DNA of 64,000 nt from the IMG/VR virus record IMGVR_UViG_3300028275_000007; one strand, written 5' to 3'. The notes below the pieces were generated by a model. It had not been told where the DNA came from. It saw nothing but the letters and a program-made list of their open reading frames with translations, and searched no databases. The translations under genes were made by a program, and so were the position numbers. Of this stretch, positions 4,336-18,658 are shown piece after piece; the stretch's first letter is position 1, and every line of letters starts with the position of its first letter. Source of the stretch: a virus. Taxonomy: Duplodnaviria; Caudoviricetes.

Positions 4336-5355
4336 TTATTTTACAAATACATCATTAATTTGTCTATTAACCCTAATAAATGTTGTACATTTGGATAATT
4401 GTTTTAGACTAGGTGCGCCTACGTATGTACAGGTACTACGAATACCACCTAATAGATCTAAAACTGTATTTTCCACAGCACCTTTGTATGGAATTGTAAC
4501 AGTACGTCCTTCACTGCTACGATATTCCGCTACACCTCCGTGGTGCTTTTCCATAGCGGTATCTGAACTCATACCATAGAATGTGACTTTGCCATCTTTG
4601 ACTTCACCGCCACCCTCGTTGTGACCTGCCAGCATACCTCCTAGCATTACAAAGTCCGCACCAGCCCCGAAAGCCTTAGCAACATCGCCAGGGCAAACAC
4701 ATCCGCCGTCAGCAATAATATGTCCGCCAAGACCGTGAGCGGCATCGGCGCATTCAATGATAGCACTAAGTTGTGGGTAGCCCACACCAGTTTGAATACG
4801 AGTAGTACAAACGCTACCAGGGCCAATGCCCACTTTAACAATATCCGCACCACGTAAAATTAACTCCTGTGTCATATCTGCGGTAACAACGTTACCAGCA
4901 ATAATAGTTGATTGAGGGAATGTTTCACGAACTCTAGAAACATAATCTCCAAATCTTTCTTGATATCCATTAGCCACATCAATACAGATAAAATGTATTT
5001 CTGGGTACTCTCGGATAATATTACTAAGGCGTTGAAAATCTTGGTCGCTGGTTCCTGTGCTAACAGCGAAATAATTTCCGCCAATGTCTTCTAGTGTTGT
5101 TTGAAAATATAAAGTATCAATATTTTTTACAAGACAAGTAAACATCCTATGTTGACATAGAGCGTGGGCCATTTGTAATGTCCCAACACCGTCCATATTA
5201 CTGGCCATAATTGGAACACCAGTCCATTCAAATTTACTATGTTTGAATTTGTAACTACGAGATAAGTCGACAGATTTTCGACTTGATAATGTAGATCTTT
5301 TTGGGCGAATCAATACATCTTTGAAGTCGAGCTTAACTTCATCTTCGATACGCAT
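4336..5355 (-). CDS. guaC: GMP reductase
   Basis: [40 protein letters not shown] motifs. Confidence 0.95.
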
Positions 5356-5367
5356 ATAAGGCCTTTC

Positions 5368-5607
5368 TTAGAATAATTTAGGTGGGAGTTGTTGTTCGCG
5401 AAGTTTCTTGGCCCAGCGGGCTTTGGCAGCACCTTTTTTACGTTTGCGTTCTGTTGTTGGTTTTTCGTAGAATTCTTTTTTGCGAAGAACATCAAGTGTT
5501 CCTGCTTCTTCTACTTTCTTTTTAAAACGTCTAAGAGCAGAATTAATGTTTTCATTTTCTTTTAATACTACTCCGGTACCCGATGCAATTCTATTAAATT
5601 TATTCAT
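5368..5607 (-). CDS. rpsU: Ribosomal protein bS21 (start moved to MNKFNR)
   Basis: [37 protein letters not shown]. Confidence 0.92.
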
Positions 5608-5992
5608 AATTTTTTGAGATTCTCTCCAGTAAAGTTGAAATATCTTCAACACTATATATAGCACGATCGTTAGCTAAATGTAAATCTTTTAGATTACCAA
5701 AATAATAAGATTGAGGTTGGGCCGCAGTCCATCCTATAATAATATCTGTACCGTTAGGAGGAACTTCTGCATTAAACAATATAATGTCGCATTTTGGTAT
5801 TTTGTCTAATAACCAATCTACACGATTACCCATTTTCCAAACATAGTTAATAAGCGTGTGTGGAAGTTTAGATTCTAATAATGCTGTAGAAACTATTGAA
5901 CTTTGTTCATCTGATAGTTCTACGTGTAAGATACGGATACCTTGTAATAGTATATCGTCTGGAGGTGTAACAATTAAAATTCTATCACTCAT
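5600..5992 (-). CDS. Hypothetical protein
   Basis: 130-aa ORF coupled to both neighbours. Confidence 0.75.
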
Positions 5993-7431
5993 TTTTTAGC
6001 ATCTTGAATACGTTGCCAAATTGTTCCTGCGCCTTGTTCGGCATTTTGTTGATAGCCTTCGATTGTTTTAGTTACTTGATGTCCGTCGACATTTTCCATA
6101 TATGTTACAGGATTTATATAATCGCCTGGACGCTCATCTATTCCTGCGGTAAGGATCTTTTCTTTTGCCCATTCTTCAGCAGCAATAGCTTCAACAGTTT
6201 CTGGATTTTCTTCAGCCCATTTTTGTGCTTCTTGAGCATCTGCAATATAGTCTTCCCAAGGAAGTTTGCTGATAAGACCTCGTTCAAACAATCTACGTTG
6301 AATTTTTAGACTACTATCTGGATTATCTTTCTTCCAAGCTGTCATAGCTGCTTTTTCTATAGCTTGAACACTATTTAAAATTTCTTCTTCTTCTAGTTCA
6401 TCTTCTTTTTCGGCAGCGGCTTCAGCTTCAGCAATCATTTCATTCCACTGATCTAGTGGTTTAATTTCGTTGAATTTAGGTTCTTCATCTTCAACTCTAT
6501 AATCTTGTATGTTTGCGTGTTTTGGAAACGCCCATCCTACAGGGTGAGGATCTTTTCGAACTGGCTCTTGTTCTGCAATAGTATCTGTGCTAACTACATT
6601 AGATTCCTTTTCGGGGATGTCACTCTCCGTGGTTTCTAATTCTTTATCTTTTTCGTCACGAAACCATTGGAAACTATATTGACTTGATAATAAAAGAATA
6701 ACTGCTAGAGGATCAAATACACCGACAATAATAATGATAACCCAACGAACAGCACGTTCTAGTAAATTATTATCGGGATTATCACCGTAGATTAATGCGG
6801 CAATGTATTTTATCGGACCAACCTCTGCTTCCACCTTACGTACTTCAGCGGCGATGGGTGCCCGTTCTTCACTAAGTTTAGCAATTGTTTTCTGTTCGGC
6901 TGCAATCTCAGAAAGTAATCGAGTGCGTTCCTTGGCCTGTCCTCTACGTAGCGCAACTGCCTTGTCCGCACCTTTTTCATCTTGACTTCGACCCATAACT
7001 TGGTCCACAGCCTCATCCATTTGTTTGAGTGCTTTGCGATTTGCATCTATATTGTCCTTTGCTACTTTAATTTTTTCATCGTAGATAGAAATCTTACTTA
7101 GAACATCCCCACTTACTAGACTTTGGTCACTGTGTGCTTTTGATAGGAATCCAAAGATACCCATCGAGGTAATTACCATTAAAATTGTAATGGCAATCAT
7201 CAAGTATGTTTTAATAAAAAATGGTGCTCGTTTCCAATTTAATTTTAACCAAACTGTAGCAACAAGTTTGCTGATTTCAAGAGCAACACCCATAACAATA
7301 ATGGGGATAACTGCGGCAGCGAAGATAGCTACTAGGCCTGCAACAGAATAATAAATGGCAACAGCGGATAATGATAATCCGCTGAAAAGGGCCAAAAAGG
7401 CCATAACTTTATCGCTGGTGTGTATTCTCAT
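5989..7431 (-). CDS. Membrane protein with periplasmic coiled-coil and acidic C-terminal tail
   Basis: Several N-terminal hydrophobic helices, a heptad-rich middle, another TM (RWVIIIIVGVFDPLAVILLL), E-rich tail; TAAATA upstream. Confidence 0.75.
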   Translation of the reverse strand: MRIHTSDKVMAFLALFSGLSLSAVAIYYSVAGLVAIFAAAVIPIIVMGVALEISKLVATVWLKLNWKRAPFFIKTYLMIAITILMVITSMGIFGFLSKAHSDQSLVSGDVLSKISIYDEKIKVAKDNIDANRKALKQMDEAVDQVMGRSQDEKGADKAVALRRGQAKERTRLLSEIAAEQKTIAKLSEERAPIAAEVRKVEAEVGPIKYIAALIYGDNPDNNLLERAVRWVIIIIVGVFDPLAVILLLSSQYSFQWFRDEKDKELETTESDIPEKESNVVSTDTIAEQEPVRKDPHPVGWAFPKHANIQDYRVEDEEPKFNEIKPLDQWNEMIAEAEAAAEKEDELEEEEILNSVQAIEKAAMTAWKKDNPDSSLKIQRRLFERGLISKLPWEDYIADAQEAQKWAEENPETVEAIAAEEWAKEKILTAGIDERPGDYINPVTYMENVDGHQVTKTIEGYQQNAEQGAGTIWQRIQDAKK

Positions 7432-7441
7432 AGAAAAATAT

Positions 7442-7834
7442 TTAGTTGTGCCAAGTCCATCTATTATCTGCTTCGTTTAAACAGGCAGTAGCTTTCATAG
7501 TCTTTTCGACGTTGTATGCAATGGCTTGAATATAAACTCTTCTACAATAACCTGCACCACTAGGCCAAGTTGCTGAAGATACGGCCATACCGCTGGCATT
7601 TTTCTTATACCAGCGAACAATTTCTCCATCATTTGAAAATAAAACTGCGTGTGTGATAGCTTGATTATATGCTAGTTTTTGTTCATCGTCAAGAGTTTTA
7701 AACCAACCAAATGATAGATCCACTAACCTGTTGGTCCATTCGCCAGACCTATAATTAAAAAATCTAGGATTTTCAATTTCGTTGGCGTAGACAGGATTAC
7801 TGGCCGTGAGTATCAACAACTTCCCAACTACCAT
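7442..7834 (-). CDS. Exported protein, 17-kDa surface antigen (RT0821/Lpp0805)-like
   Basis: Signal-like N-terminus; ...GEIVRWY...PSGAGYCRRVY...ATAC...WT pattern. Confidence 0.6.
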   Translation of the reverse strand: MVVGKLLILTASNPVYANEIENPRFFNYRSGEWTNRLVDLSFGWFKTLDDEQKLAYNQAITHAVLFSNDGEIVRWYKKNASGMAVSSATWPSGAGYCRRVYIQAIAYNVEKTMKATACLNEADNRWTWHN

Positions 7835-8153
7835 CAGGCAACTGACAACTGAGCGCACGGTATTGAACATCCTGTCCTCCTTTTTTCATCCATCCATAAA
7901 AATAACCACAGTTACTACCAATTCCTGCTCGAGCGATAGTAACTCTTTTTATTTGATCGTCGGTACACTCTACGGTAGTACGACTATCAACCTTCTCTCC
8001 ATTCTTAGTCTGAATGGTCTGACTAGTATAGCAATACTGTGGTTTCTGTGCCTGAACTCTAGGTGCCGACGAACAACCTGATAACAATGTTATCAACACG
8101 AACAAAGCAATAATAATAGCCCACAAGTAATTTTTTACTGTGTAGGGATGCAT
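7797..8153 (-). CDS. Lipoprotein, Cys-rich
   Basis: Hydrophobic stretch plus lipobox LSGC; C-terminal CQLPDGSWEVV. Confidence 0.7.
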   Translation of the reverse strand: MHPYTVKNYLWAIIIALFVLITLLSGCSSAPRVQAQKPQYCYTSQTIQTKNGEKVDSRTTVECTDDQIKRVTIARAGIGSNCGYFYGWMKKGGQDVQYRALSCQLPDGSWEVVDTHGQ

Positions 8154-8644
8154 TATCGACTCGCTGTCTTTTGTTCTTTGGCTTCGGCAATCAGCTGATC
8201 AAATACAGCCTTAGGCATTTTCAATTTAACAAAAGTATAGTGACGACCTTGCATAGTGAAATGTCCAACTTCGCGATTTAGATGCTCGCGAATAGTTGTA
8301 TCTTTAACAACATAGGAAATCTTTGTGTAAGTAGATTTTTTGTCATTAACAAATTCAATCTTAGTTTCGCTGTTAACTTCGCTGTTAATACGTTTGGCAA
8401 AGTTATTCATAGCGATTGCATACATTTGTTCTTCTGCGGCTTGAGCGTGAAGCGATTCGCCTGCACCACAAGCATACGCATAATCCTTAGCGAACCAAAA
8501 CCAGCCTTCTGTGCCAGCTTGAGCGCAATCAATATACCAACTAGGTTGAGCGTAAGTCTTACGTTCCTCAACTTCTTTCATCGACGAGCAACCTGTTGCA
8601 AGAACGGACGCTGCCAAAATGCCTGCTAAAACTGCCTTTTTCAT
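8153..8644 (-). CDS. Lipoprotein (LPP20-like)
   Basis: MKKAVLAGILAASVLATGC lipobox. Confidence 0.75.
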   Translation of the reverse strand: MKKAVLAGILAASVLATGCSSMKEVEERKTYAQPSWYIDCAQAGTEGWFWFAKDYAYACGAGESLHAQAAEEQMYAIAMNNFAKRINSEVNSETKIEFVNDKKSTYTKISYVVKDTTIREHLNREVGHFTMQGRHYTFVKLKMPKAVFDQLIAEAKEQKTASR

Positions 8645-8724: not shown

Positions 8725-9039
8725 TTACTTAAAGAAAATCAATGCCATCATAACAGCCTGGGCAATGAATCCTACTCCAATAGTTACTAGATTGAGCATA
8801 TCTTTTTGGACAGCGGCCTTAATAAACAAAAGGCTAAGTCCGCTCCATACTAGCAATATTAAATCTACAGCTGGCATACGATCAGTAAGGCCAGCCATAA
8901 CTGCTAACAGGCTAGGTATTGTAGCAGAGTGTAGAAGGACAATAGCCAACCAACCAAAAGTCTCTGCTGATACGTTTGAGATTTTTTCATTAATAGAGGT
9001 TTTAAATTTTTCAAGGTTAAACTCCGGTAGCGTGATCAT
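8725..9039 (-). CDS. Small membrane protein (3 TM)
   Basis: Three hydrophobic segments. Confidence 0.75.
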   Translation of the reverse strand: MITLPEFNLEKFKTSINEKISNVSAETFGWLAIVLLHSATIPSLLAVMAGLTDRMPAVDLILLVWSGLSLLFIKAAVQKDMLNLVTIGVGFIAQAVMMALIFFK

Positions 9040-9614
9040 ATACTTTCACCTTTCTCTTTCTTTCCACGATAAAAAATGTGTTGTCCAATTTGCCCGATCT
9101 TTTCAAGCGGCCATTTTGGATTAACGTAGGCAGCGTGATAATAAAGAGCATCTTTCATTACATCTAATCTAAAATTTTCTAAAAGAACCTTTTTAGCTAC
9201 AGCATAACTTTCTGCATAGGCTTCTTTGTTCATCGGTTTTGTTTTTGCGGCTGAGTCGCAGGCCCATGAGAATTGGCATACAACTTTTTCCATAATTACA
9301 TTTTTTTGATAAACAACTCCGCAGACATCGTTACCGAATGTTCCCTTGGCTACTCTATTCATTGTAACCTGCGCAACCGCAACTTTACCTTCGAAGGGCT
9401 CATAACCTGCTTCACGATAAATGTTTTGGGCTAAACATTGTAATTGTTGTTCACGAACTTTGATAGACATTACGTCTTGTGACGAGTAAGCCTGAGCTTC
9501 TCTAAGCATAGTGAATTTCTTTTGTGTAATATTTTGAACCAAAAGAAATACTACTAAAAACCCTAGAAATAGGGATACTAATCTAAATGACTTTTCCATA
9601 AGTCCTCCTTTCAC
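9036..9614 (-). CDS. Cell wall hydrolase, SleB/Hydrolase_2 family, N-terminally anchored
   Basis: CLAQNIYREAGYEPFEGKVAVAQVTMNRV...CQFSW...ALYYHA..V.PKW...IGQHIFY. Confidence 0.92.
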   Translation of the reverse strand: MKGGLMEKSFRLVSLFLGFLVVFLLVQNITQKKFTMLREAQAYSSQDVMSIKVREQQLQCLAQNIYREAGYEPFEGKVAVAQVTMNRVAKGTFGNDVCGVVYQKNVIMEKVVCQFSWACDSAAKTKPMNKEAYAESYAVAKKVLLENFRLDVMKDALYYHAAYVNPKWPLEKIGQIGQHIFYRGKKEKGESI

Positions 9615-9619
9615 TTGGT

Positions 9620-9846
9620 GTTGTATTACTACAACATTACATTAAGGGAGTTAACTTCACGAGGCTCAATAAAAGAACCCTGACATACGTGTAGTTGTCT
9701 CCATTGGACGCATAGTCTCATAACCTATGTGCCTTTGGAGCCTTGACCGCCCGAATCTCACGGGTTTCTCATTTGGCCAAGACTCGCGGAACCTTTTCAG
9801 CTTGTGACATACTTCGGTTCTACTATCTTAGTTTCTTTGCGAAACG
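9620..9846 (-). ncRNA. Candidate structured 5' leader RNA (~230 nt) of the cell wall hydrolase gene
   Basis: Non-coding with nested stems CTTGGCC/GGTCAAG, CCCG/CGGG, CTCCA/TGGAG, CATAG/CTATG, GAACC/GGTTC; family not recognised. Confidence 0.55.
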
Positions 9847-9889
9847 TATAATATATAGTTCATTTTTTGGATATCGGTAACAAAACAGG

Positions 9890-10399
9890 TTATTTTTGAC
9901 AATTTTTAGCAACTTGTTTGCAAATTCCAACAAATTCCTCGTCTGAAAGATCTCTCTTAATGCAATTAACCTTCCACGTAACGAGTTGTATATTACCTTT
10001 AATATAACCTTTTGAACTATCAATCCTATCTATGGTACAGCTATTTGGATTACACCATTTGCCTCCCCAATTTGTCCCGCCTCTAACAAATTCTAGATCA
10101 ACTCCAGTGAAGGCACATTTCCAATTTTGAGATTCACCCACTTTATATACTTCATCTAAAGTAATCTTAATCTCTTGAGAATGTTCTCCTCTATTTGAAG
10201 CCCTAGACAAATTTTGCCTTAGGAATTTTAATCTACCACTTACAGTCAGCCAATTGTCCATTCTAGCCTGAGCTTCAAGCGGCCAGCGTTTTGTATTTTT
10301 TCGATCCCAACCCCAATCTGCATCCTGTCTTTCAGATGTAGATAGTGAGTCAAAAACTTCTCTGTAAATTTTTGATTCGTAAATTCTTTGTACGGTCAT
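9890..10399 (-). CDS. Free-standing HNH-like (His-Me finger) endonuclease
   Basis: CAFTGVDL...CTIDRIDSSKGYIKGNIQLVTWKVNCIK. Confidence 0.75.
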   Translation of the reverse strand: MTVQRIYESKIYREVFDSLSTSERQDADWGWDRKNTKRWPLEAQARMDNWLTVSGRLKFLRQNLSRASNRGEHSQEIKITLDEVYKVGESQNWKCAFTGVDLEFVRGGTNWGGKWCNPNSCTIDRIDSSKGYIKGNIQLVTWKVNCIKRDLSDEEFVGICKQVAKNCQK

Positions 10400-10791
10400 C
10401 GGCGCATCCTTGATATATCAACTGCTTCTTCGTCTGAAAAAATGGGGACAGCATTAGATTTATGCATAGTACCAATACCTTTGATAGCAGTACCTGTATA
10501 AACCTTATCTGGCGCTTTCAGACAAGGCGCCATATTAGTAGGATCTAAACTAGGAATTTTTGGACCTGTATCTCGAATGAATGGTTTATTCACTACTGGA
10601 TTCATTACAGGAGCGGATAGACCTCGATCACGTTTTTTATTATCAGCATCAATAGCCCATTTTTTCTGCAGGGCTTTCCAGGATTCGTCCAACTCTCTAG
10701 CCTTTCTTGCGTGTTCAGCCGAAGCAAATTTCTTTTTACCTTTTTTCTTGCCTGTGGTTGACAGCCACGGACCTTCCAAGTGCATACTCAA
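10396..10791 (-). CDS. Conserved T4-like phage hypothetical protein
   Basis: C-terminal YTGTAIKGIGTMHKSNAVPIFSDEEA motif; sigma70 promoter upstream. Confidence 0.75.
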   Translation of the reverse strand: MSMHLEGPWLSTTGKKKGKKKFASAEHARKARELDESWKALQKKWAIDADNKKRDRGLSAPVMNPVVNKPFIRDTGPKIPSLDPTNMAPCLKAPDKVYTGTAIKGIGTMHKSNAVPIFSDEEAVDISRMRR

Positions 10792-17744: not shown

Positions 17745-17769
17745 AAAAAAGGCTACCGAAGTAGCCTTT
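17745..17769 (-). terminator. Terminator of tmRNA gene
   Basis: AAAGGCTAC-CGAA-GTAGCCTTT. Confidence 0.8.
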
Positions 17770-18085
17770 ACTATTTTCTGTTTCGAGGTATAGCTACCCA
17801 AAGCCTTAAGCGGCTAATGCGAAACGTGTATCGTTTGCGTTTACTTTTTTTGCTTCTTCGGCCGAGTTCCCCCAACCCTACGGGTTTCACATTCCCGAGC
17901 TGTCCACTTCGTTACTCATCACCCTGTCGAAACCATGACTGGCCCATTAGGGAGAACACTAGTATGACGTCTGCTACGCCGCGGCCGAAGCCCTTAGTAA
18001 CGGTTCTCTAATGCTCTCTCTGGTGGACCAGGCGGGAGTCGAACCCGCGTCCAGAATACCTTTCTCTCTGCTTCATACAGCAATA
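17770..18085 (-). ncRNA. ssrA: Circularly permuted (two-piece) tmRNA; tag (A)NDTRFALAA*
   Basis: Acceptor piece ends GGTTCGACTCCCGCCTGGTCCACCA at 18021; 75-nt spacer; coding piece starts GGGCCAGTCATGGTTTCGACAGGG at 17945; tag ORF 17838-17806. Confidence 0.9.
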
Positions 18086-18100
18086 ACTTATATTTAACAC

Positions 18101-18658
18101 TCATTCTTCATAAATGTCAATATCTTCATCTTCCCAAATTGTACCTTTTTTATCATAGGCTTGATAATAAGCTTCGTTTGGTTTGAGTATGCGCCAACCC
18201 TGATACTTGAGTCCTGCTAAGGTAGCTTCTTCTTTCTTTAGTAGATCGCAGATAATAAACGATGAGCCGCAGGCTCCTTCTACATTCTTAAATGGACTGT
18301 GTTTAAACTCGTTATTACTCAGAGCCTTGTGCATAGCACCACCCCAGTTAAAAATGATGCGAGTGATACCCAACTTTTGGTTGCGTAAACGAATCTTATC
18401 TATAAGTGAAAGAGTTGATAATGTAGCTTCGTTCTGTTCATTGATTGTTAACAAACATTCTTTGAACTTAAGGCTACCTTTAGTATGGCTGTTGTCAGGA
18501 GTTTCTTTGGTACTCCAAGCCATTTGTGCGTCAACGTGATTGACATAAAATGTTTCACCGTGTGTTTTAAGGACCCACATCGGAACGGTCTCATCTTCTA
18601 AGTGTTTTTTATTAAAATGGAACACTACATCCTTACAAGCATATTCAATCTATTGCAT
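18101..18658 (-). CDS. Hypothetical late protein with in-frame TAG at codon 3 (alternative start GTG 18625)
   Basis: AAGGAAAATAAA ATG CAA TAG ATT GAA TAT GCT TGT AAG GAT GTA GTG TTC..., in frame with the 174-aa ORF. Confidence 0.7.

Follow-up and report, generated by a model that had tools for sequence, protein, structure and literature searches.

A conserved structured RNA family precedes lysin genes in T4-like giant phages and may control their translation

Introduction

Phage lysis timing is a central life-history trait, which is thought to be set by holins and, in T4, by a simple hairpin together with the choice of promoter. If a whole clade of giant environmental phages had a large, tightly conserved RNA in front of the lysin gene, lysis would be under a further layer of control, exerted by RNA. 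This possibility is raised by one locus of an uncultured member of the Caudoviricetes (IMG/VR record IMGVR_UViG_3300028275_000007), of which a stretch of 64,000 nucleotides, here called the window, was analysed. The initial annotation of this DNA described a large structured RNA at the head of an operon for a cell-wall hydrolase and lipoproteins, and suggested that it works as a timer for hydrolase expression. Is this RNA a conserved family, what is its structure, and how might it act on the gene behind it?

The leader and the genes behind it

The leader is encoded on the minus strand of the window (9597-9858) and is non-coding over ~250 nt. It lies in the non-coding gap 9600-9889 between the stop codon of the ORF at 9890-10399 and the ATG of a Hydrolase_2 gene (9599-9597), and its GC content is 0.45-0.51 across 9650-9849 as compared with 0.28-0.34 in both flanks; the initial annotation had correctly called ~230 nt of this gap (9620-9860) non-coding and richer in GC than the flanks. 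All motifs listed there are present on the minus strand of the sequence, and the element does end, as described, at the hydrolase ribosome-binding site (GGAGG, 9608-9604). The conserved portion extends from a late-promoter-like TATA box to the Hydrolase_2 start codon. A small peptide, which had been named as a competing explanation, finds no support: no ORF is common to more than 15 of the 87 leaders compared, and leader lengths are evenly spread modulo 3 (32/26/29). The genes directly behind the leader are as follows.

9036-9599, minus strand: Hydrolase_2 (SleB-type) muralytic enzyme, 187 aa (PF07486, E = 5.9e-26)
8725-9039, minus strand: holin-like protein of 104 aa with three TM segments; its start overlaps the stop of the hydrolase gene
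8153-8644 and 7797-8153, minus strand: two lipobox proteins, identified from their translations

The 187-aa hydrolase also matches the PHROG endolysin family phrog_938 (E = 8e-22) and carries an N-terminal hydrophobic anchor (residues 1-26). Further members of the cassette are a secreted protein and a 480-aa membrane protein. Genes for the 104-aa and 480-aa proteins are present in all 61 of the related loci, and the lipobox pair and the secreted protein in 40-52 of the 61; the three-TM gene and the two lipobox genes keep their synteny in 51-61 of 61 loci. This synteny bears out the earlier statement that the element directly leads a hydrolase-lipoprotein cassette. Judging by their sequences, the genes behind the leader probably form a lysis-type cassette, to which putative holin and spanin roles can be assigned. 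A 353-kb relative that is 98% complete has just one Hydrolase_2 gene, and neither a T4-type lysozyme nor an SLT domain was found in it.

On the upstream side, a 169-aa endonuclease VII/HNH-like gene (window 9890-10399, minus strand; phrog_3322, E = 4e-20) sits between the leader and its usual upstream neighbor, a 131-aa phrog_27048 gene (10396-10791). This gene is found in one of the 61 related loci and looks like a free-standing mobile endonuclease inserted just 5' of the promoter box of the leader.

Conservation and distribution of the leader among related phages

The Hydrolase_2 protein has 399 relatives in the viral collection. Among the first 80 related loci the leader is kept in 78, at 71-91% nucleotide identity, and its median identity (85%) is higher than that of three neighboring genes (72-74%). 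An unbiased scan with an invariant 17-mer of the leader retrieved more than 113 viral contigs. The leader is present in hundreds of related T4-like giant phage contigs, and a capsid gene of the T4 Gp23 type (E = 1e-96) is found among these relatives. Each phage genome has a single copy of the leader, and so does the window; the 353-kb record (98% complete) is no exception. The Hydrolase_2 gene directly follows in 181 of the 182 leaders with enough downstream DNA. In the lone exception (L097), an IS200/IS605-type element (4459-6220), which has a TnpA-like ORF of 132 aa and a TnpB-like ORF of 418 aa, interrupts hairpin P6 and separates the leader from the hydrolase gene. Three close relatives (L078, L291 and L292) encode the hydrolase behind a ~110 nt spacer without a leader, and therefore the leader is dispensable for expressing the gene.

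When the 17-mer was searched against 185,579 species genomes, 17 matches were obtained, of which one is a true copy of the leader. This copy (L195, JBDNIA010000258.1), which includes both leader and hydrolase, is on a 4.3-kb contig of a Crocinitomicaceae MAG; the contig is probably phage DNA binned into the MAG and is at best a weak hint at the host. When the 1.4-kb region was compared by blastn with 50,697 deposited phage genomes, no hit was obtained. The leader family is thus far confined to T4-like giant freshwater phages.

Secondary structure and covariation

Folded as a single sequence, the leader is only modestly more stable than its shuffles (z = -2.16 for the sense and -2.30 for the antisense strand), and the case for a structured RNA therefore rests on the relatives. 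A six-helix model drawn on the window sequence was converted into a covariance model (R1), to which all distinct leaders were aligned. We analysed a set of 87 sequences and a set of 95, the latter consisting of the 87 plus diverged lineages fetched with the P1/J1-2 pattern. The anatomy of the leader, from 5' to 3', is listed below.

9848-9858, minus strand: TATA-rich late-promoter-like box, CTATATATTAT; core TATATA in nearly all relatives; 5' edge of conservation
9831-9845, minus strand: hairpin P1, GUUUC-GCAAA-GAAAC, with a GNRA-like loop; pairing in 99.8% of cells and a single change, from C-G to U-G
9821-9830, minus strand: linker J1/2, CUAAGAUAGU, nearly invariant in all lineages
9786-9823, minus strand: hairpin P2, with a variable stem; 4 compensatory pairs, 98% of cells paired, top ranks by MI-APC
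9738-9785, minus strand: P3 domain, with a long stem of 9775-9785 with 9738-9748; compensating changes at the base and mid-stem, frequent G-U
9765-9774, minus strand: 5' internal loop of P3, A/U-AUGAGAAA, conserved
9750-9764, minus strand: P3a, inner hairpin CCCG/CGGG within the P3 domain
9706-9733, minus strand: hairpin P4; compensatory changes in 8 of 9 pairs
9716-9724, minus strand: P4 loop, GUUAUGAGA, conserved
9647-9702, minus strand: P5 domain, with an outer helix of GGAG (9699-9702) with CUCC (9647-9650)
9636-9650, minus strand: anti-SD strand CUCCCUU (9644-9650) and invariant linker, AAUGUAAU; pairs with either GGAG
9636-9646, minus strand: invariant linker after the CUCC strand, CUUAAUGUAAU
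9620-9635, minus strand: hairpin P6, variable; 4 compensatory pairs, 98.7% of cells paired, enclosed by the anti-SD:SD helix
9597-9619, minus strand: conserved 3' tail, ACACCAAGUGAAAGGAGGACUUAUG, with the SD GGAGG (9604-9608) and the start codon (9597-9599)
within 9597-9619, minus strand: tail ACACCAAGUGAAAGGAGG, followed by the AUG

Upstream of the TATA box the aligned relatives are variable in sequence. The box fits the T4 late promoter consensus TATAAATA (PMC3014915) at 5-7 of 8 positions by our own count on the alignments, and CTATA(A/T)A-like boxes also occur elsewhere in the window. Transcription would presumably proceed from this box, with an RNA start at or a few nucleotides from P1. 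The P1 loop changes from GCAAA to GUAA in diverged lineages, where the stem is kept, and P2 has two invariant closing pairs outside its variable stem. The bulged U in the P4 of the window type is paired in variants with an extra 5' nucleotide. Within its outer helix, P5 consists of P5a (AACU/AGUU), P5b (CACG/CGUG), a variable bulge of 6-7 nt and the hairpin P5c (GGGUUC/GAGCCU).

Covariation was assessed by the fraction of cells with standard pairs and by the number of cells in which both partners had changed. Standard pairs occupy 94.0% of the cells in the 87 sequences, as compared with 30-52% when the partners are slid by 1-3 columns, and 93.5% in the 95 sequences, as compared with 31-52%. 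Doubly changed cells number 403 against 13-28 in the slid controls (87 sequences) and 466 against 17-39 (95 sequences), and none of 500 shuffles was as high in either set. Compensatory changes are found at 19 pairs in the smaller set and at 24 of the 59 modelled pairs in the larger one. Most of the covariation falls in P2, P4 and P6, and the pairs of the model are also at the top of an independent MI-APC ranking. P5 is invariant in the main group, and its fold is kept in the diverged lineages by compensating changes, with five covarying pairs in P5a/b once these lineages are added. Conservation and covariation, on which the initial annotation had made its reading depend, are thus found in both sets. 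The stems of P2, P4 and P6 vary freely, while hardly any change is seen in the linkers and loops. Of the paired cells, 11.3% are G-U, and the opposite strand would pair in only 85.6%; therefore the functional strand is the sense strand of the gene and the signal acts at the level of RNA.

The helices proposed from the single sequence fared differently. CTTGGCC/GGTCAAG enclosing CCCG/CGGG corresponds to P3 and P3a: all 22 distinct variants of the P3 domain fold alike, into a stem, an internal loop and an inner hairpin with compensating changes, although the P3 of one variant type is mis-registered by the aligners. GAACC/GGTTC is P2 and covaries strongly. From the pair of nested helices CTCCA/TGGAG and CATAG/CTATG, the inner one is P4 and also covaries strongly, whereas the outer one is reduced to CCA/UGG when all variants are considered and overlaps other helices. 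Neither GGCTC/GAGCC nor GAACC/GGGTTC is conserved, and we rejected both because the P2 arm and the base of P3 vary while GGGUUC and GAGCC stay fixed. The reported repeat of GTATGTCA is not a general property either, since a second GTATGTCA occurs in only 9 of the 87 relatives.

Several tertiary or long-range contacts were considered but not adopted. A pseudoknot between the P3a loop and the P5 bulge (UAUUUU/AAAGUA) is complementary at 6 of 6 positions in 39 sequences, but at no more than 4 of 6 in the other types and the diverged lineages. Positions 9643 and 9612, which flank the anti-SD:SD helix, are coupled as non-Watson-Crick combinations (A-G versus U-C or U-U); since both lie in one 50-nt block, this coupling is explained equally well by linkage through recombination. 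Conserved complementarities of the P4 loop UUAUGAG with CUCGUGA of P5, of J1/2 with GUCUUGG, and of GUUUC with a second GAAAC were not credited: chance alone would yield matches of such length, and covariation amounts to at most one possible double change.

A possible translational switch at the ribosome-binding site

The 3' part of the leader suggests how it could act on the gene. In the proposed mechanism, the pyrimidine strand CUCC(CUU) would be shared by the two identical purine strands that flank it, the upstream GGAG and the GGAG of the SD. Pairing of CUCC with the upstream GGAG would close P5 and leave the SD free (state 1), and pairing with the SD GGAG would produce a hairpin around P6 in which the ribosome-binding site is hidden (state 2). 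P1-P4, with their invariant linkers and loops, would choose the state by binding an effector, which could be a small molecule, an ion or a protein.

None of the 87 sequences departs from the GGAG/CUCC/GGAG triad. Among the 95 sequences, two (L304 and L306) read CUCU and a third (L305) has AAGGGA as its SD, and pairing is kept in all three, with AAGGGA of L305 matching UCCCUU at 6 of 6 positions. Both alternatives are kept in every diverged lineage, several of which gain a fifth pair in both helices (GGAGA/UCUCC). The alternative pairings that the initial annotation had cited as evidence of a switch are not conserved, and it is this different, invariant alternative that exists in their place. 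Because the three strands are almost invariant, covariation cannot confirm either switch helix, and any SD would pair with a pyrimidine run such as CUCC.

Structure prediction places the two forms close to each other. RNAalifold applied to the alignment returns the form with the SD sequestered, whereas the minimum free energy structure of the single sequence has the closing helix of P5; the constrained energies in the window are -76.4 vs -74.9, or 1.5 kcal/mol apart. Mean ensemble probabilities across 81 relatives are 0.72 for a free SD and 0.21 for a paired SD. When the 3' domain is folded in isolation it hides the SD in 79-85 of 85 sequences (median -12.6 kcal/mol). We lean, by a narrow measure, towards the interpretation that the leader is a six-helix 5' leader of the lysin mRNA which acts in cis on translation initiation through the CUCC switch and an effector; the switch itself and any effector are inferences. 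As in the initial annotation, a role of the leader as a timer for hydrolase expression is something that we infer.

Replacement of the lysin in a diverged lineage

Leaders from L300-L303, the most diverged lineage, score 125-129 bits with R1. Here the leader precedes a gene for a secreted RlpA-like DPBB_1 lytic transglycosylase (PF03330, E = 4e-23), and there is no Hydrolase_2 gene at this place.

L303:4027-4539, minus strand: RlpA-like gene behind the leader
L300:384-863, minus strand: RlpA-like gene behind the leader

The RlpA-like gene is directly followed by a homolog of the 480-aa membrane protein, and no three-TM or lipoprotein genes were found by tblastn in the fetched stretch of the RlpA-lineage phages. 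Since unrelated muralytic folds (Hydrolase_2 and RlpA-like DPBB) share one leader family, the leader follows the function and not one particular gene. This argues for a leader that serves the lysin as a control module and is no passenger of a single gene. We conclude that the leader is a real, conserved and uncatalogued cis-regulatory RNA family of phage lysin genes; the comparison of relatives establishes that the family exists, how it folds, on which strand it lies, and that muralytic genes are the only ones it precedes.

Comparison with known RNA families

In order to determine whether the leader belongs to a known family, we searched positions 9620-9860 with the 4227 models of Rfam 15, which include ydaO-yuaA, manA and wcaG, and obtained no match at gathering thresholds. 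At E<=10 with lax filters the search returned nothing but noise at the edges, with 15-16 bits against cut-offs of 60-101, and none of 19 relatives had a match inside the leader at E<=10. The Rfam check thus agrees with the initial annotation, which had not recognized the family.

Large leaders before peptidoglycan-hydrolase genes are known from bacteria, namely the c-di-AMP riboswitch (ydaO-yuaA, RF00379) and the lysM and NLPC_P60 orphan motifs. The phage leader differs from ydaO-yuaA in host range and in its architecture of serial hairpins, and what they share is only the theme of cell-wall hydrolase control. Among phages, T4-like cyanophages have the structured RNA motifs manA and wcaG (Weinberg et al. 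2010, PMC2864571); Fremin et al. 2023 (PMC10690425) mined 10,006 candidate structured RNAs from IMG/VR. The leader resembles these motifs and candidates in that they covary, come from uncultured T4-like phages and lie upstream of particular gene classes; manA and wcaG have entries in Rfam, and the leader matches neither. The text of Fremin et al. (PMC10690425) makes no mention of hydrolase, endolysin or lysis, and the catalogue, which draws on the same sequence collection, may list the leader motif under an anonymous number. Literature searches brought up no specific description of a riboswitch or structured RNA in front of phage endolysin genes. The giant Escherichia phage Goslar (MK327938) also has a gap of ~250 nt (111006-111257) directly upstream of a SleB-type hydrolase gene; with filters off, its best score with the covariance model was 3.9 bits and no homology was detected, so that the gap is either unrelated to the leader or too diverged to tell.

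The closest functional analogue is the hairpin of T4 gene e. The mRNA of this lysozyme gene contains an inhibitory hairpin, as do those of soc, 49 and I-TevI (McPheeters et al. 1986, reviewed in PMC3014915). Both cases involve a T4-type phage and a cell-wall-degrading enzyme, and in the leader, too, the ribosome-binding site could be hidden in an intramolecular helix, so that the time of enzyme synthesis would be set by translation as well as by transcription. However, gene e has one simple hairpin, which is relieved by a late promoter within the 5' strand of that hairpin, whereas the leader comprises six helices over ~250 nt, has its promoter-like box at the far 5' end and has a decoy GGAG that would compete with the SD for the anti-SD strand, and there is no homology between the two. 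No late promoter was found within the presumed inhibitory 5' strand of the leader, as no TATAAATA-like sequence is present in or next to 9644-9650; the sole conserved promoter-like box (9848-9858) is ~200 nt upstream of the anti-SD strand.

Alternative interpretations

More specific proposals can be made about the effector of our preferred reading. The leader could represent a new riboswitch class, in which P1-P4 and P5 would form an aptamer that senses a metabolite or an ion and gates the SD as the ligand stabilizes or breaks the closing helix of P5, which would link lysin production to the condition of the infected cell; we regard this as a tentative idea with a real but minor chance of being correct. 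The leader has one general hallmark of riboswitches, a conserved and covarying domain 5' of the gene that it would regulate on a presumed common transcript. Its pattern of conservation is aptamer-like, with J1/2, AUGAGAAA, GUUAUGAGA, AAUGGAGAC and UUAAUGUAAUG invariant and the peripheral stems free to vary, P1 has a GNRA-type loop, and a candidate expression platform with two conserved alternatives is at hand. Against this, none of the 4227 Rfam families, riboswitch classes included, is similar at E<=10, and the family was not found in the cellular genomes among the 185,579 species genomes searched, the one true match out of 17 being that on the 4.3-kb MAG contig. Additionally, the hairpins are arranged in series without an enclosing multi-helix junction, and the gene context suggests no ligand. 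The signal would matter for lysis itself, because the leader is retained when Hydrolase_2 is replaced by the RlpA-like lysin. Were a phage-only riboswitch class of this kind to sense a metabolite, second messenger or ion and gate lysin translation, which is conceivable but rather doubtful, T4-like giant phages would possess an RNA-based lysis clock or checkpoint. A ligand, if one exists, would reveal what the phage "measures" before it lyses the host. The leader family, with ~100 natural variants available, is a concrete and testable candidate in this regard.

A somewhat less probable proposal is that the leader is an operator for an RNA-binding protein, encoded by the phage or the host and acting as a repressor or an activator, for which the repeated loop motifs would be the sites. 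Within each lineage short motifs recur at single-stranded positions: AUGAGA is shared by the P3 internal loop and the P4 loop, GUAUGUCA or AAAGUA by the P2 loop and the P5 bulge, and, in the RlpA lineage, GUGACA by P4 and the P5 bulge. These repeats could be protein sites or could reflect pseudo-symmetry. However, they differ by lineage, and chance or templated mutation could yield them. Protein repressors of T4 bind unstructured, AU-rich sites that contain AUG, and the SELEX consensus of RegA is aaAAUUGUUAUGUAA (PMC3014915); AAAAUUGUUA occurs in the P4 loop of one diverged group. An operator for RegA in particular was rejected, as a search of three relatives, of which one is 98% complete, yielded no PF01818 homolog, though the search matched no control genome either. 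RegA also represses early genes and not late ones.

The leader could instead be constitutive, and we consider this unlikely. It would then stabilize the late mRNA, with P1 protecting against 5'-end-dependent decay, or serve as a standby or enhancer platform for the ribosome. Since modelling favors the SD-free state in most relatives (0.72 of the predicted ensemble), the leader could be permanently "on"; P1 lies at the presumed 5' end, and the gene persists in relatives without the leader. A sequence of ~250 nt that is more tightly conserved than coding genes and is kept across the replacement of the lysin nevertheless goes far beyond the needs of stability, and so does a conserved anti-SD strand around a covarying hairpin.

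Very little speaks for a stable ncRNA that acts in trans, for instance in host takeover, in anti-defence or as an RNA mimic, and that shares the promoter or is cut from the mRNA. The size, complexity and conservation of the leader are in the range of stand-alone ncRNAs, and there is one copy per genome, but conservation continues unbroken into the SD and the start codon, a scan found no terminator-like site on the minus strand within the leader (9600-9858), and in every case a muralytic gene comes directly after the leader, also where the gene has been swapped for an unrelated one. Least probable of all is control of the type described for gene e, in which the inhibitory strand would be present only on read-through transcripts while late transcripts start inside and are translated: the CUAUA of the TATA box is complementary to UAUGG at the start codon (a pairing made by alifold), RNAs that begin at the box would lack it, and the T4 precedent is itself a lysozyme gene (PMC3014915), but this helix has 4-5 bp over a span of ~255 nt and does not covary, there is no late-promoter consensus inside the anti-SD strand near the ribosome-binding site, and the conserved 250-nt fold would be left unexplained.

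Other features of the loci

Some further RNA features were recorded near the leader and elsewhere. A permuted (two-piece) tmRNA is encoded in the window (17746-18134, minus strand; beta_tmRNA, 118.7 bits, above Rfam thresholds). One relative (L254) has a tmRNA at 72-516, ~0.7 kb 5' of the leader, and gene order around the cassette therefore differs among relatives. Four relatives have rsmX/RsmY-like matches 0.5-1.4 kb upstream of the leader (L229:663-767, L289:667-751, L267:71-173 and L293:265-329; 24-27 bits, E = 0.07-1.8), all of them below gathering scores, which may be due to chance.

Another protein of the cassette that deserves mention is the 480-aa membrane protein (5989-7431, minus strand). 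Its N-terminus holds four TM segments, its tail is long and charged, and its only match is a weak one to Tetraspanin. No other partner is retained behind the lysin in all lineages examined, which makes this protein a candidate for a lysis-control or holin-like protein.
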